Sequence record: NZ_LC532224.1
Strand: one strand, 5' to 3'
Length of the DNA: 64,000 nucleotides
DNA from: a plasmid
Shown: positions 18,001 through 27,000 of the stretch, one piece after another
Layout of the letters: every line of letters begins with the position of its first letter
Position numbering within the stretch: the stretch's first letter is position 1
Made by a program: the position numbers

Positions 18001-21000
18001 CGAAACCGGGCCGGGAGAGGGTGCGCTGGCTACCGCTTCCTGCCCCCGCGCACTGGAAAAAGAGGAAATTAGTGAGATTGTCAGGATGTACGCCGGGGCA
18101 GCTCAGAACGCCCTTGATGCCGGTTTTGACGGTGTGGAAATTCACTGTGCAAATGGATACCTGGTTAACCAGTTCATGTCATCCCATAGCAACAAAAGAG
18201 AGGATGAATATGGTGGCTCATTACATAACCGGCTGCGGTTTCTGCGCGAAGTGACGCAGGCTGTCGCTGATGTGGTCGGTAAAGACCGTGTGGGAGTCCG
18301 TTTTGCTCCGCTCTTTCAGACCACGGATGAAGTAAGGGTCTATCTTGGCCTGGTGGAAGATGATCCCCATGAAACCTATACCGAAGCCGTTAAAATTCTT
18401 GAAGAAATCGGAATAGCCTATATTTCTCTTGCTGAAGCCGACTGGGATGATGCTCCCGAATTGCCTGAAGCATTCAGAGCTGAAGTCCGTAAGTTATTCA
18501 GCGGTGTAATTATGTATGCCGGGCGATATACGCAAGAAAAAGCCGAACGGATTATCGGTGCTGGCTGGGGAGACATTATCGGATTTGGCCGCCCGTTCAT
18601 AGCTAATCCGGATTTACCGCAGCGCCTTTATCATGAATGGCCACTGAATCCGGTCGATCCAACAACCATGTATGGTGGAACGGCAAAAGGCTACACAGAT
18701 TATCCCGCCTTTGGCTAACCATTCTTATGAGCATCAGCTTTTCAAAAGCTGATGCTTAACGTAGAGAAGTATCGTAACATTGCAATTCCTCAATGCGACA
18801 AGTGACAGAGTTTATGCCTGATATTGATTTGAATGACGTGATTAAGGCGCTGGGAAACCCTGTTAGAAGAAAAATTCTGCATATGCTCAAGGAACCGAAA
18901 ATACACTTCCATCAGCCTTATGCTGATGCGGACGAGTTCGGTGTGTGTGTCAGTATCATTCAGGAAAAGGTCGGGCTCTCACAGTCTACCGTTTCTCTTT
19001 ACCTCTCAGCTCTTCAACGGGCACAACTTGTTACTTCTCAGCGCATCGGTCCCTGGACGTACTACAAACGTGACAATGATAAAATAAGGGTTGTTCTTGA
19101 GTTGCTGAAAAATACAATCTGATACAGGACTGAGCACATTCAGTGTAACAGTACCGGGGGTTCGTACTTGCGATCCCGGCAGGCATTCCATGAAAGCGCA
19201 CTAATTCCTCAATATCAGGCTGCAGACCGGTCATAAGAGGCTAATAGTTTTGCAAAATATCCACCAGTTTGGGTCAAATCACTCTGTCGGTTGGTGTGCA
19301 TACTCGGTGCAAGGACCTGCAGATATTTAAGATGGCGGATAGCTTGTTACAGTGCCGCTGATGACATTCCGACCCTGTTGCCGTCCGGGTAAGATAATAC
19401 CTCTGACAGCGGTCATAAAAGCCCAACATAATTGTCTTTCGAGCCATATATTAATCGCTCATCGCGCTCTCTTTTTCGAAGAGGTGTCACTTAATCATGA
19501 TCGGTCAGTACAAAAAGACAGTGCTTTTCCAAATTCCGGACGGTTGTATGCGAAAACGGTGAAGCTCAACAAATGGTGTCATCGCTGTGCAATGCTCTGC
19601 GGGCTCATTCTTTCAGTTAACTGTTTGGTTACAGCTTCAATGAAGTATTTCAGTTAATTCACAGCGAGGGTTTGAGGAAACCACGCTGTGATTACCCAAC
19701 GCTCATCCGGAGCATCCGGATTGAACTGTCGCTGGAGCTTGTTGGGCGACACGATACTGGCCTCGCCTTTACATGCCCTCGGGCTCCGGTATCCGACCTG
19801 AGCCTTTATCCCGACACGTTTCATCAGTCGCCAGACTCTGTTCACTCCGCACTGTTGCCCGCTGTCCCGCAGATCCAGATGGATTTTGCGATAACCATAG
19901 ACGCATCCCGATTCCAGCCAGAACTGTTTAATCTGTCCTGTCAGTCTCAGGTCTGCCTGATGGCGTTGTGAATGCGGCTGCTGAAGCCAGGCGTAAAAAC
20001 CACTGGGATGTTCATCCAGCACCCGACAGAGCAGGCGAACAGGCCAGCAATAGGTGTTGTCACGAATAAAGGCGTACCTCAGTCGGACAGCTTTGCGAAG
20101 TACGCCGCGGCTTTTTTTAATATGTCCCGTTCGTCGGTAACCCGCTTCAGCTCTTTCTGAAGACGGCGGATCTCGGCCTGAGCATCTGACTGTTCTTTAT
20201 TAGTGGAAGAATCCGGACCGTAGTTCTTTATCCAGGCGTAAAGGCTGTGGGTGGTGATATCGAGACGCGTTGCAACGCTGGCAACAGAATAACCGCGATC
20301 AACAACCTGTTTGACTGCTTCAATTTTAAACTCTTCAGGATAACGCTTACCGCTCATGGGCACCTCTCTTTAAGTCATCTTAAATGACTCTGAGGTGTCT
20401 GTTAAACCTGTGGCGATTCACCTCGCGTCCTTCCGTTCAGTATAGCCTCAGTCCCTGACACCACCCGAGAACGGAATGACGTCCCCTTTCTCCCTCCCGG
20501 TGTTGCGTTCAAGCTCCCTGACATACTGCTGTAAAAGTATAAGGTTATGTAACAGCTCTACATTTTCAGCCATCATCTTTTTGATTTCTTCCCTCAGCTC
20601 ATTTCTCTGACGGCGATACTTTTCTTTCAGCTTGATCTGCTGCTCAATGCCCTGCTCATCAACCGGCGCGGTGCCCTGGCACGTTTTTTTCAGACTGCGG
20701 ATAGCCTCCCTGACCTGCCTGTACTCAGGACAGTTATAATTCAGGGTGCCGTTTGCCAGCCCCGCTCGTTTTTCCACAGCATACTGGCTGATACGCTCCC
20801 CTGATAACATCAGTTCCCTCAGGGCCTGCTCTGCTCTTGCCTGTGTTTTTTTAACCCCCGACTGTTCGTTCGTCATGCTCTATTCATCCTTTTCAAAAAA
20901 ACGGACAGCATCTGCATAAAAATCTCTCTCAAGCATCAGAAAATCCCTGTCAGCCTGAGGAGCATTATTTCGCACGGCAATCTCCAGAAGGTTGTCATAA

Positions 21001-24000: not shown

Positions 24001-27000
24001 ACAGAAAAAAAGAAGTAAGAAAGTAATTTTCCAGAACGTCCCTGATGATGATCTCTGCCCTGCTGACCCCGTTCTCTCCCGGATACCGGAAATACGCTTC
24101 ATAAACAGGTGCCAGCAAAGACGGTGAGAAATGCCGCACCCCTTTTTCCGATTTAGCGATATGCTCCCGGATACATCCCGCAAGGAACTCATTCATGGAT
24201 GACAACTGCCTCAGGATCTCGGAAAGTTCATTCCTGGTATAGCTATCCCTTCCCTGCTGCTGATACGTTCCTTTCGGTAAGAATTCATATTCATACCGCC
24301 TCTGAATCTGCCCGCCCGTAAGCAAAAACCGGTTGACCACGGACAAGTAGTGTCTTGCCATCCTGACTGAAATTTTTCGCCGACGAATATCGTTCATGAG
24401 ATGTTTAATATACATTTCAACGCCTTCAGCCGTGCCATAGTCATACTGATTGACTGACTGCCATATAAAAAACATATTGAGATAACGGAAAATGGTTAAC
24501 CTTCCGGCGGGACGGTAAGACAGAAGAAATCGTTTCAGAGAGGCAATAAAATCGCGTTTTTCAGGGCGGGCAAGATGCGAATGTTCACTAAACCATCCGG
24601 GGAGCAACACATAATCTGAAAAATGAGCCTGAAGATAAACGTCAAGTAAATAATATCGGTTCAGATCCCGCTGAGTGATGTGTCCGCTGACCGTCTCCCA
24701 TGACAGCACATTTTCGGCCATCCACGTTATCTGCGTTTCACTCCGGCTCATATATGGCTCCATCGCGACCTGCAGCACCGTCAATCAATGCGTCCATGAC
24801 CCCGGCGACTGCATCAGAAATCTGGTTTTGCTGAAGAAAGACGATGTATTTCATCGTCGTATTTTCGCTTTTATGGCCCATCCAGTATTTTACTGTACCC
24901 AGCGCATTTGCGGCCTGATCGGGATAGCAACTCAGTGCCGAGCGTAAAAAATGGGTCGCAAACGTTGCCCGCAAATCATGGGGTTTATGTCTGAACACAT
25001 TTCCCGGAGCAGACCGGGCCAGGCGATGGCGAAAACTGTACCAGCGGGAGTAAAAGGCTTTTTCAGACATCCGTTTCCCGTTTGCCATTAAAAATAAAGG
25101 CTCGTGCCGCCCTTCCCCACCCTGTCGTGCACGCCATTTTTGGATCTTCTTTTCATACTCCTCATCCGCCAGATAATCCAGAACCTGCTCGTACAATCGT
25201 CTGGTGATGAAGAGTTCTCGCGTCATCCCAAACTTCGTATGAACTCCGCATCTCGGACCAATATGAAGCCCCCTGATGGTCAACTCAGATACAGGGACAC
25301 TGGCAAGGTACTCTTCAGTAAAGAGTGACGACGGCAGGGTCAGCATTTCATCCAGCCGTAACCCACAATTTTTCATCAGCACAATCATTAAACTGAACAA
25401 CCCGGACTCAGATTTCAGTGCCTCATCCAGGATATGAACCTCTGCATCATTCAGTGGGTTGATTGTCCTTTTTGTTGTGCTGGTTATCCTGATGGCAAGA
25501 TCCGAACTTATCACCTTGCGTCGCCCGTCAACGACTTTTTCGACCAACGTAAAAAATGAGCTGGCAGCCAGCTCACCACACTTGCCCAGAAATACGTAAA
25601 ACCGTCGGATAACGCTGATGTACACCGCCGCGGTGGATGAGGCGATGCGCCCCTGCCTTACGGCCCCCAGAAGATACTCCCTGAAGCCATATGTAGGGCT
25701 TTGGTATTTCAACGTTCCCGGGGTGAAAGGGTCAAGTCCGTTATCCTCCAGCCACCTTATCCAGCGTAAAAATGCCCGGGCTAAAGGCTTTAAATCCCTG
25801 GCCTGCAGGATAGCTTTATCCATAAGATAAAAGTGTACATATCGGCTCAGTTTTCGATTCTGGATGCCGCTAATATAAGGTATTTCAGCATACAGAAATC
25901 CGGGTTCAAATTTCAGTTTCGGCTCTGTTGCATCCAGTTTGCTGACACGCCCATAACGCGCATGAATGTTAGTGATTATCCTCACAGTCTGTCGCCCTGA
26001 AACGCCACCTCATGCCTACACTATAAATCCGGAAGAAGAAAAAACAAACAACCAGGTTGCCGGGAGTGAATATGCAAATCAGGAGGAAAGTAAAAGATGT
26101 AACGACACCATCACGATGCAATACATTGACCTCAACACGTTACCCGGACCATACGTGATAAACATCACAAATCCTTTGAGTGAAGAACTTAAGATGTGAT
26201 TTTCATTTCCCGGCACAAACCGTGCCCTTAAAAAACAGGCAACGGATACATCTTAATGCCAGAAGTAAACCTTAATTGATTGAATACAGCCTGAGTCCAT
26301 TGCAAAAATAACACACAGGGTAAATTCGCATATACAGAACCCAACGAAAAGCAAAAGAAACCTGTAACACATTTCGTTTACCTGTCACTTTCAATTGTAA
26401 AAGCCAGCAGAAAAAGCGCATATAACTATATTTATCCCTGCGGGGACTTTTGTTTGTGCTATATATTTTTTACAGAGAACCGCAACGCGTCCAAACACAA
26501 GAATATATTTACCTCTGGAAAATGGTCTGACTCCCTTTCACGTGGTTGTAGTGACCTGTTCTGTGATTCATGTAATGTCTTTTCTGGATGAGGAAAATAT
26601 GTCATCACTGATATTTTATACAGACGAAGCACAAGCACTGATTGTAACAGATACCCTTGCCGTCACCGATAATGGGGAGCCGTTATCTTTTGTTTCCAAA
26701 GCAGGTTACATCCCCCAGCTAAGAACCATCATAGCAGGTACGGGGGCAGGTGGATTTTCTAACACCTGGTTGCTTGAAGCATCAACCAGAATGGTCGTAT
26801 CAGGTATACAAAATCTCAATTATCATACATCGGCCTGTCTAAGGAGGCTGTGGAAACAATACAAGCATGACCATGCAATTCCCTCTTCTTCAACGGTGAC
26901 AACCAGTGTTTATCAGTTCGCAATTTGCGAGGAAACAGGAAATATCGTTTCGTTCGCCTATCGCTCAGTCCATGATTTCGAATCAGAGCAATTACAATAC

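Follow-up and report, generated by a model that had tools for sequence, protein, structure and literature searches.

A 64,000-nt stretch of a plasmid (NZ_LC532224.1; the window) contains, at 20448–25985, four genes that a preliminary description read as the integrative module of a GInt (ginABCD) or a Tn554-type transposon (tnpABC), which raises two questions: to which family of mobile elements does the module belong, and where does the element end? SEs are strand-biased circularizing integrative elements. The module is very probably the intA-tfp-intB-srap core of an SE, with window positions 1–27370 forming the intA-proximal three quarters of an element of ~34–37 kb that has split a gene of the PAPS-reductase family on a conjugative IncHI2 plasmid.

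The ORF listing again gives four co-directional minus-strand ORFs across this span, with overlapping or abutting junctions and the sizes described before (415, 599, 705, and 142 aa). The 13-nt overlap of genes 2 and 3 (22985–22997) and the 3-nt spacer between genes 3 and 4 (20877–20879) were likewise recovered; the 47-nt overlap given for the first junction, however, needs a TTG start (599-aa version of protein 2, 22985–24784), and with the ATG at 24751 that is used in homologues and RefSeq (588 aa, WP_007897920.1) intA and tfp overlap by 14 nt. More than 120 plasmids carry the module at ≥99% identity, and the four-gene order also occurs in plasmids of Vibrio, Alteromonas, Shewanella, and Photobacterium at 20–30% protein identity; this conservation excludes a chance pattern of ORFs.

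All four proteins match their SE counterparts position for position (BLASTP, E = 1e-6 to 1e-37), including IntA with the IntA of a V. parahaemolyticus SE (29% identity, E = 1e-36) and Srap with the Srap of three other SEs (E = 3e-7 to 1e-7). Family profiles made without pAQU1 sequences match the proteins of SE-Pda04Ya311, the SE on pAQU1 whose strand bias was demonstrated by experiment (IntA, 2.5e-39; Tfp, 3.9e-38; IntB, 7e-59). The module thus belongs to the SE family, and WP_007897920.1 and WP_017384060.1 are listed as tfp and srap orthologues (Additional file 3 of Idola et al., 2023; PMC10214605). The element is of a known kind, but its ends had not previously been delimited: it is included in the bulk orthologue list of the SE paper and absent from its 38 elements with defined ends (PMC10214605).

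The catalytic residues follow the SE order of complete, degenerate, and complete active sites. IntA (Pfam Phage_integrase, 8.5e-9) has the unambiguous set already noticed, R210, K251, H336-x-x-R339, H371, and Y380, with no variation among 28 homologues. Tfp, by the residues counted across 44 homologues, has Asn258 at the expected Arg-I position and no His at His-II but retains K284, R385, Y417, and four invariant Cys. In IntB, R357, K384, H500, R503, H527, and Y536 are all invariant (nine sequences, 21–71% identity), so that the weaker R and H-x-x-R blocks attributed to genes 2 and 3 hold for gene 2 and not for gene 3. A recombinase fold had been expected in both proteins, and the sequence of IntB bears it out: its catalytic region aligns colinearly with the IntA family (hhalign probability 70.7%, E = 3.8e-5; full length, E = 4.9e-4). 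At the level of sequence, significant likeness of Tfp to recombinases is limited to its N-terminal SAM-like domain (against IntA, hhalign probability 86%, E = 4.7e-6); its catalytic region gives an hhalign E of 0.052, the AlphaFold model of Tfp has a pLDDT of 47, and the top PDB profile match of Tfp is IntI4 (2a3v, E = 0.029).

GInts (Bardaji et al., 2017; PMC5385486) resemble this layout closely: a four-gene operon of similar sizes encodes three proteins related to recombinases plus a small one of coiled-coil/HLH type, cargo lies past the small gene, and a short AT-rich stretch forms the 3′ end. Recombination requires all four gin genes, the circular form at times leaves no empty site, a 6-nt staggered core has been inferred, and GInts occur in 7.5% of Escherichia replicons vs. 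0.3% for SEs. The earlier proposal of a tyrosine-recombinase-based four-gene integrative module stands, but membership of the GInt family is highly improbable. BLASTP of the four proteins against GinA–D of E. coli Sakai (ECs_3512–3509, given as ginC/ginD in Additional file 10 of PMC10214605), the check that the preliminary description had suggested, gave nothing better than E = 0.9, and the family profiles score marginally on GInt proteins (11.7–14.1 bits). In GInts, ginA and ginB are catalytic and the third protein, GinC, lacks the first Arg, whereas the degenerate protein here is the second; the 705-aa IntB is larger than GinB (437 aa in Sakai); the junctions show a 6-bp core rather than direct repeats of 10–11 nt; and authors who compared both families placed these proteins in Tfp/Srap clusters, apart from GinC/GinD.

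The second proposal, a Gram-negative member of the Tn554 family, is very unlikely. Tn554, compared here by the description of its proteins, also combines an ordinary and a large tyrosine recombinase with a small protein, TnpC, and inserts site-specifically; the SE authors name target specificity and a 6-bp footprint as traits that it shares with SEs. Srap matches Pfam DUF6262, a family with one protein called TnpC in one paper, but below the threshold (E = 2.4e-5; 24.9 bits, cut-off 29), nothing in Tn554 corresponds to the 588-aa Tfp, and the Tn554 hosts, Staphylococcus and Enterococcus, belong to a different phylum. RIT elements (recombinase in trio) share with the module three adjacent recombinase-family genes; their three proteins are of ordinary size and all have a complete active site, and the elements have long terminal inverted repeats and are not known to include a small fourth gene.

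Table 1. Features of the SE and its target within the window.
Feature	Position	Strand	Basis or remark
Cargo	1..19653	.	Colinear with NZ_CP112981.1
frmA, 3′ part	1–487		Cargo
VOC	531–929		Cargo
fghA	994–1830		Cargo
Group II intron	2477–4746		Cargo
uvrA-like	6008–8701		Cargo
Glutathione-independent formaldehyde dehydrogenase	9642–10775		Cargo
Cu-binding protein	11207–11533		Cargo
SDR, AraC, DMT, MBL hydrolase, LysR	in order between Cu-binding protein and alkene reductase		Cargo
Alkene reductase	17594–18718		Cargo
ArsR	18814–19122		Cargo
IS3-family transposase remnant, truncated, frameshifted	19654..20363	-	RefSeq annotation of identical DNA
srap, auxiliary protein, 142 aa, coiled-coil-like C-terminus	20448..20876	-	WP_017384060.1, SE homology
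intB, large tyrosine recombinase, 705 aa, C-terminal Cys cluster	20880..22997	-	Invariant residues, hhalign, profile
tfp, recombinase-related protein, 588 aa, degenerate active site	22985..24751	-	WP_007897920.1, residue counts, profiles
intA, ordinary-size tyrosine recombinase, 415 aa	24738..25985	-	Pfam, catalytic residues, SE homology
AT-rich intergenic region upstream of intA, inside element	25986..26541	.	GC content
ORF, function unassigned, 211–230 aa, WP_012477419.1, between motif C and intA	26542..27234	+	In every copy examined
Motif C terminus, intA-proximal SE end, CTCTAAATACATAAAAACAAGAGTA	27346..27370	+	Divergence point between copies
6-bp core AGCGAG of attL	27371..27376	+	Identical to empty plasmid site core
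IncHI2 PAPS-reductase-family gene, 5′ part (target gene)	27377..28314	-	Split by insertion

The proximal end was read from the point at which the window and other IncHI2 copies diverge from the ygiQ copies of E. coli and Enterobacter: the last base of the element is 27370, with an uncertainty of 1 nt because the first base of the core is A in every copy. The end therefore lies 830–1385 bp beyond the AT-rich stretch (25986–26540) at or near which an insertion junction had been placed, and its neighbor is not an AT-rich island but the IncHI2 backbone with the split target gene. The 20–25 bp direct repeats predicted near 25990–26100 are absent, the junctions carrying the 6-bp core, and 25986–26540 and 1–20447 have no k-mer of ≥12 nt in common. 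Motif C occurs once in the window, and a search of the window for the distal motif found none. In the colinear NZ_CP112981.1, where the SE is 34,454 bp long, the distal terminus (CACCCTATAATTCTGATC...) adjoins the 3′ part of the target gene and lies 9354 bp left of the base that corresponds to window position 1; the element thus runs ~9.35 kb past the start of the window, upstream of which one of the candidate sites for the distal cargo end had been proposed. The terminal inverted repeat is weak: the tips TACTCT (proximal, read inward) and CACCCT (distal) agree at 4/6 positions, and a sub-terminal ATTTAGA, shifted, is common to both ends.

IncHI2 plasmids that lack the SE carry the target gene uninterrupted (2385 nt), and its product matches Pfam PAPS_reduct (2.5e-6); the 5′ part of the gene in the window amounts to the first 941 nt, core included, and the ORF called at 27262–28314 runs through into the SE end. 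The empty site in NZ_CP051271.1 (L006) reads GCTGTGCAA-AGCGAG-CACCCATATCG and the proximal junction CAAGAGTA-AGCGAG-CACCCATATCG, so that the 6 bp beside motif C are the target's own core; those beside C′, AAGGAG, are foreign. An ordinary integrase island, in which IntA alone would exchange both strands and the other three genes would be accessory or unrelated, would fit the curated integrase-domain match confined to IntA, yet the asymmetric cores, with no identical core shared, speak against it, as do translational coupling of the four genes and their co-conservation down to 20–30% identity in distant hosts, the complete catalytic set of IntB, and the loss of the SE-6283 circle joint upon deletion of intA, intB, or CDS4 (srap) singly; this reading is extremely improbable.

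Within the SE, the region 25986–27370 has a GC content of 0.41, and its intergenic part is presumed to hold the intA promoter; in E. coli 214-4, IS3 and IS66 insertions are tolerated upstream of intA. The ORF next to motif C adjoins it in every copy examined and has no match in Pfam or PADLOC. Variable cargo starts at the IS3 remnant directly downstream of srap, where other copies have IS5 or a complete IS3 followed by different cargo: one core (96.7–99.9% identical) occurs in elements of 17.7, 21.3, 25.9, and 34.5 kb in two target genes. Cargo had been predicted downstream of the small fourth gene, perhaps with frm; the whole detoxification segment (1–20447), frm included, is inside the element.

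The characterized SEs include SE-6283/Tn6283, SE-6945, SE-Pda04Ya311, and SE-EasCA1043 (Nonaka et al., 2022, PMC9345347; Idola et al., 2023, PMC10214605). The present element shares with SEs the module at one end, with its homologous proteins and catalytic pattern, cargo after srap, weak terminal inverted repeats, the placement of target core beside C and carried core beside C′, insertion at a few selected sites, a host among the Gammaproteobacteria, and carriage by a conjugative plasmid of the MOBH type. It differs in having 1.4 kb of sequence, including an additional ORF, between intA and the end, in cargo for formaldehyde/electrophile detoxification rather than antibiotic resistance, and in its targets, ygiQ and the IncHI2 PAPS-reductase-family gene, which are not described in PMC9345347 or PMC10214605; identity to validated SEs is only 20–30%, and its activity is predicted from sequence.

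By analogy with experiments on homologous SEs (PMC9345347, PMC10214605), IntA and IntB, aided by Tfp and Srap, would carry out a single-strand exchange between attL and attR, and the element would be copied out as a circle whose C–C′ joint (attS) holds the 6 bases formerly flanking motif C, leaving no empty donor site; the circle would then insert at sites like A-R-V-G-A-G-CA(C/G)CC, the carried 6 bp landing beside C′. The homologues behind this mechanism are only 20–30% identical, and circle, strand bias, and lack of an empty site are not features that can be read from sequence.

Junctions at other sites bear on this model. The empty ygiQ site of E. coli K-12 is ACAG-AAAGAG-CAGCCGCC, and E. 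coli ygiQ copies have AAAGAG or AAAGAA beside C and AGTGAA or AAGGAG beside C′. A copy in the ygiQ-ftsP locus of an E. asburiae chromosome (core 99.8% identical) has AAGGAG beside C, equal at 6/6 positions to the C′-side bases of the plasmid SE, the Enterobacter empty-site core being deduced from this occupied site. Another SE, inserted in the same plasmid target gene, offers an independent parallel: its C-side TCAACC equals the published C′-side 6 bp of the chromosomal SE-EasCA1043. AAGGAG also adjoins C′ in E. coli GPEC1176, for which the model needs a donor site of Enterobacter type and not the plasmid site. In the pESCOTC_24 plasmid copy, AACGAG flanks both ends, a pattern not expected under the simple model.

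The SE might instead be an immobile relic that entered an IncHI2 ancestor once and has since only been inherited, its module no longer working. The use of one site by more than 120 plasmids that are ≥99% identical there, cargo littered with the IS3 remnant, IS1, further IS elements, and the group II intron, and the absence of a circle in one of the four SEs tested in the SE paper would agree with this. It is nevertheless unlikely: none of the four ORFs is disrupted, both termini are preserved, cores 99.8–99.9% identical lie with different cargo in ygiQ of E. coli and E. asburiae chromosomes, and junctions of two types occur among the plasmid copies.

The single insertion site in more than 120 plasmids implies that most copies were inherited rather than newly transposed. 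Because of the 6-bp match (AAGGAG), the plasmid copy probably originated at an Enterobacter-type ygiQ site in a chromosome, and the IncHI2 plasmid would now carry this non-conjugative element between hosts.

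On sequence comparison, the four minus-strand genes at 20448–25985 are the core of an integrative element of the strand-biased circularizing kind (SE) and not of a GInt, because their proteins match SE proteins by BLASTP and by family profiles, and none matches GinA–D of E. coli Sakai (ECs_3512–3509) by BLASTP better than E 0.9. The SE core is described as intA, tfp, intB (encoding a large recombinase) and srap, in that order, with Tfp adopting a recombinase fold from which the R-H-R-Y residues are reported missing (PMC9345347; PMC10214605). All four genes proposed in the preliminary description are recovered by ORF listing, as are the junctions with a 13-nt overlap and a 3-nt spacer; its 47-nt first overlap holds from the TTG start of tfp and becomes 14 nt from the ATG used by homologues and RefSeq. 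The genes are co-directional and lie at one end of the element, and their order and sizes are repeated at other loci (L009–L013 and L016).

Genes of the module, insertion sites and active-site positions of Tfp (C, intA-proximal end of the element; C', distal end)
Feature	Position	Strand	Detail
intA	24738-25985	minus	ORF, 415 aa
tfp	22985-24784	minus	599 aa from TTG; ATG at 24751 gives 588 aa, WP_007897920.1
intB	20880-22997	minus	ORF, 705 aa
srap	20448-20876	minus	ORF, 142 aa, WP_017384060.1
IncHI2 plasmid site			empty GCTGTGCAA-AGCGAG-CACCCATATCG; C side AGCGAG; C' side AAGGAG
E. coli ygiQ site			empty (K-12) ACAG-AAAGAG-CAGCCGCC; C side AAAGAG or AAAGAA; C' side AGTGAA or AAGGAG
Tfp Arg-I position	N258		Asn in 39/44 homologues
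Tfp beta-hairpin Lys position	K284		Lys in 44/44 homologues
Tfp His-II position	G383		His in 0/44 homologues
Tfp Arg-II position	R385		Arg in 40/44 homologues
Tfp His-III position	H408		His in 26/44 homologues
Tfp Tyr position	Y417		Tyr in 44/44 homologues

BLASTP of the window proteins against their positional counterparts in three SEs gives values of 1e-6 to 1e-37 for all four; among these SEs, the one from an E. coli plasmid shares its Srap accession with the named SE-EasCA1043. Family profiles match the proteins of SE-Pda04Ya311 of pAQU1, which is among the SEs shown by experiment to recombine with strand bias, at 3.9e-38 (Tfp), 7e-59 (IntB) and 2.5e-39 (IntA). By BLASTP, Tfp matches its pAQU1 counterpart at 2.9e-8; Srap matches that of pAQU1 weakly (0.02), against 1e-7 to 3e-6 for the Srap of three other SEs. 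The Srap and Tfp accessions of the window also stand in Additional file 3 of PMC10214605, the tfp-srap synteny blocks of RefSeq, WP_017384060.1 about 400 times and WP_007897920.1 as well.

The GInt ginABCD assignment made in the preliminary description is contradicted not only by the Sakai comparison, in which family profiles likewise score at most 14 bits, but also by the catalytic order, the published networks and the flanks. In GInts, GinA and GinB are catalytic and GinC is without the first Arg (PMC5385486), whereas in the window module it is the second protein that is without it and the third that is complete. SE and GInt families are kept apart in published networks (PMC10214605), and GInt-type imperfect direct repeats of 10–11 nt were not found at the flanks, where only a 6-bp core and a chance-like CACCC shared by the target arm and C' occur.

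The further proposal of a Tn554 tnpABC-type logic survives as a distant relationship: in both Tn554 and SEs a recombinase of ordinary size goes together with a large one and with a small protein, but Tn554 has three genes (tnpA, tnpB, tnpC), whereas the window module has an extra 588-aa gene between the two recombinases. A 6-bp footprint is listed by the SE authors as a trait common to SEs and Tn554, and Srap matches Pfam DUF6262 (E 2.4e-5; 24.9 bits, under the 29-bit cut-off), a family of which one protein is annotated as TnpC in one paper. The kinship of the module with Tn554, here known by description, is real but distant. RIT elements consist of three recombinases of ordinary size, all with complete active sites, and are not known to have a small fourth gene; the window module differs in its proteins of 415, 588 and 705 aa, in one degenerate active site and in the presence of a fourth gene.

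The R...H-x-x-R...Y residues attributed earlier to the first gene were found in IntA, where R210, K251, H336, R339, H371 and Y380 are invariant in 28/28 homologues. Weaker R and H-x-x-R blocks had been described for the second and third genes; this is right for the second, where Arg-I is lost, and wrong for the third, since the catalytic set of IntB (R357, K384, H500, R503, H527, Y536) is complete and invariant in 9/9 sequences of 21–71% identity, including those of Vibrio, Alteromonas and Shewanella. The catalytic regions of IntB and the IntA family are colinear by hhalign (probability 70.7%, E 3.8e-5), a gain obtained only after plasmid-borne homologues were added and the alignments trimmed to the catalytic region; the full-length comparison with 6 sequences was not significant. 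Among the four proteins, Pfam recognizes Phage_integrase in IntA only (8.5e-9), and single-sequence and shallow-profile searches of PDB, Pfam and NCBIfam with Tfp and IntB gave no significant match. Word-indexed homologue searches had yielded only 9 and 6 relatives, and the models that AlphaFold2 built for Tfp (588 aa) and IntB (705 aa) from alignments of 7 and 5 sequences had mean pLDDT values of 47 and 44, too low for use.

Residue counts for Tfp (see table) come from 44 homologues, reaching down to 16% identity, out of an exhaustive search that gave 119 clusters among 1.84 billion representatives. The published statement that Tfp is without the motif is true only in part, because Tyr417 and Lys284 are invariant; together with R385 they have the spacing of a recombinase's nucleophile, its Lys in the beta-hairpin and its Arg-II, in a mapping derived from weak alignments to IntI4 (PDB 2a3v, E 0.029) and to the catalytic region of IntA (E 0.052). 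The only significantly recombinase-like part of Tfp is its N-terminal SAM-like domain, which aligns with that of IntA (probability 86%, E 4.7e-6); weak matches of the Tfp profile to proteins of 660–870 aa are likewise without a Pfam domain. Four Cys are invariant across the 44 homologues. Invariant Cys cluster toward the C-terminus both in Tfp (C476, C503, C509, C512) and in IntB (C626, C632, C647), each across its own family; they probably form a zinc-binding module, and the available portions of the SE papers (PMC9345347; PMC10214605) make no mention of them. The retained Tyr, Lys and Arg, beside the lost Arg-I and His-II, leave room for the unlikely reading that Tfp is not a dead scaffold but a crippled or regulated protomer filling two of the four positions of the synaptic complex.

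By comparison of copies that lie in different surroundings, the C end of the element reads ...CTCTAAATACATAAAAACAAGAGTA, with its last base at 27370. The C' end begins CACCCTATAATTCTGATC... and lies outside the window; in NZ_CP112981.1, base 1 of the window aligns with position 20297 of locus L004, the C' end is 9354 bp to the left of that base, and the element is 34,454 bp long. The tips TACTCT (C) and CACCCT (C') agree at 4/6 positions and are followed 17–18 nt inward by a common ATTTAGA with a 1-nt offset; overall the two ends agree at 13/26 positions with one gap. The putative terminal inverted repeat is weak; those of SEs are imperfect and 13–19 bp long. The C' tip resembles the pAQU1 SE tips, CACCC(T/C)TACGAT.

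Only two target genes were seen, in keeping with the few selected sites used by SEs, with a common core A-R-V-G-A-G followed by CA(C/G)CC: ygiQ on chromosomes and, on plasmids, a PAPS-reductase-family gene of 2385 nt, which IncHI2 plasmids without the SE carry uninterrupted. The minus-strand ORF at 27262–28314 (350 aa) is composed of the first 941 nt of the latter gene and about 36 read-through codons into the element, so that the complete 'PAPS reductase family protein' of the RefSeq annotation is an artefact; beyond the other end of the element, the 3' part is annotated on its own as a hypothetical protein, WP_022646499.1. A general preference for PAPS-reductase targets was considered from a Shewanella SE (locus L011) and rejected: the adjoining gene there is intact, in opposite orientation and without DNA similarity.

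Comparison of the junctions of the plasmid copy and two E. coli ygiQ copies with empty sites (see table) reveals that the target's own central 6 bp adjoin C and a foreign 6 bp adjoin C', and that target duplication is absent. Such asymmetry is described as a defining trait of SE insertion. An E. asburiae chromosome has, at its ygiQ-ftsP locus, a copy with 99.8% identity in the core region and with AAGGAG as its C-side 6 bp, the tag carried on the C' side by the plasmid copy. Under the SE model, this match would mean that the plasmid copy originated by copy-out from a ygiQ site of Enterobacter type. A scan of species-representative genomes had yielded a single locus. An exception to the asymmetry is the 21,273-bp element of pESCOTC_24 (NZ_CP171638.1; junctions 5799 and 27071 of locus L003), in which AACGAG adjoins both ends; it may have arisen by separate insertion, by conversion or through two-strand exchange.

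A second, unrelated SE occupies the same IncHI2 gene in the E. coli plasmid pWL297-blaNDM-6 (NZ_CP128614.1; 700–8200 of locus L013; Srap WP_023309561.1, as in SE-EasCA1043; end TACCATGACACGTTAGTGTA), inserted 554 nt from the start of the target gene, versus 941 nt for the window element. Its C-side TCAACC is the published C'-side 6 bp of SE-EasCA1043 on the E. asburiae CAV1043 chromosome, a match that suggests movement from plasmid to chromosome. One IncHI2 backbone gene appears to be the landing pad of two unrelated SEs, and the tags suggest two-way traffic between chromosome and plasmid.

The AT-rich stretch at 25986–26540, at or near which an insertion junction had been placed, is inside the element, upstream of intA, and a further ORF separates it from the true end. 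This plus-strand ORF (26542–27234) is conserved and without family match; the DNA of 26427–27378 is about 91% identical between copies, and that of the core operon 96.7%. The direct repeats of 20–25 bp predicted at 25990–26100 and 5492–6050 were searched for and are absent, and no repeats of at least 12 nt were found between the AT-rich stretch and the cargo. What had been taken for a neighbouring AT-rich island on the right is plasmid backbone with a GC content of 0.447. In a scan for consensus promoters and terminators, the number of sites was not above that in shuffled sequence.

In the copies compared, an IS always follows srap directly: at 19654–20363 of the window it is an IS3 remnant, in E. 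coli 214-4 an IS5, and in GPEC1176 an IS3 that is complete. Past this IS, some copies have detoxification genes, others the fec iron-citrate operon or nothing but frm, and the cargo seems to be swapped here by way of IS elements. In the window, the cargo includes a plus-strand UvrA-like paralogue (6008–8701, 897 aa; Pfam ABC_tran and UvrA_DNA-bind), the C-terminal half of which matches the PADLOC model mad3 at 4.6e-69, and a group II intron (2477–4746, 2270 bp) that is the only difference from NZ_CP112981.1, where it is absent; the minus-strand reverse-transcriptase/maturase ORF of the intron lies at 2567–4090 (Pfam RVT_1 1.5e-34, GIIM 1.3e-10). A distal module common to all copies, outside the window (11062–16026 of locus L004, NZ_CP112981.1), comprises an ORF of 109 aa, a KAP-family P-loop NTPase of 1091 aa (Pfam 6.5e-19; its PADLOC PifA/QatA matches are weak and confined to the P-loop region) and an HTH_3 protein of 98 aa, and looks like element backbone rather than cargo.

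For the element, whose family, anatomy, targets and asymmetric junctions are established here, movement is predicted by analogy with homologous SEs: exchange of one strand between attL and attR would produce a circular copy and leave the donor without an empty site, and intA, intB and srap would be required, as in experiments on homologues. The C-C' joint of the circle would read ...CAAGAGTA-NNNNNN-CACCCTATAATT.... Our own proposal adds that Tfp, as a protomer with part of its active site lost, would hold the exchange to one strand; if Tfp did fill two of the four synaptic positions in this way, this would directly explain both one-strand exchange and copy-out without an empty site in SEs.

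The mobile element is genuine and well conserved and belongs to the known SE kind; its own mobility is predicted. It is already catalogued in the literature, where, in the available text of PMC10214605, its ends are not delimited and it is absent among the 38 elements with author-defined ends. SEs are a recent description, known mostly from marine Vibrio and relatives and reported as seldom plasmid-borne (0.6% of plasmid replicons). In PLSDB, 123–144 records have the element versus about 975 with the target gene, that is, approximately 1 in 8 IncHI2-type plasmids; among complete E. coli genomes, the module is present in only 7/5426 (1 plasmid, 6 chromosomes). Large conjugative plasmids of IncHI2/IncHI2A type from Enterobacter hormaechei, Leclercia, Klebsiella, Salmonella and E. 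coli match the window region at 99.9–100% identity. The carriers of the element are large and conjugative (MOBH, MPF_F); their hosts are Enterobacter, Klebsiella, Salmonella and E. coli, with human isolates as the source of many; the element, itself non-conjugative, therefore rides between genera. The same core travels with different cargo, formaldehyde (frm) and electrophile detoxification in some copies and a fec iron-uptake operon in another. Annotation is corrected for the four module genes, mostly 'hypothetical protein', and for the split target gene annotated as complete. The 6-bp tags make the previous location of the element readable from sequence alone, which offers a cheap means of tracing gene flow from chromosome to plasmid.
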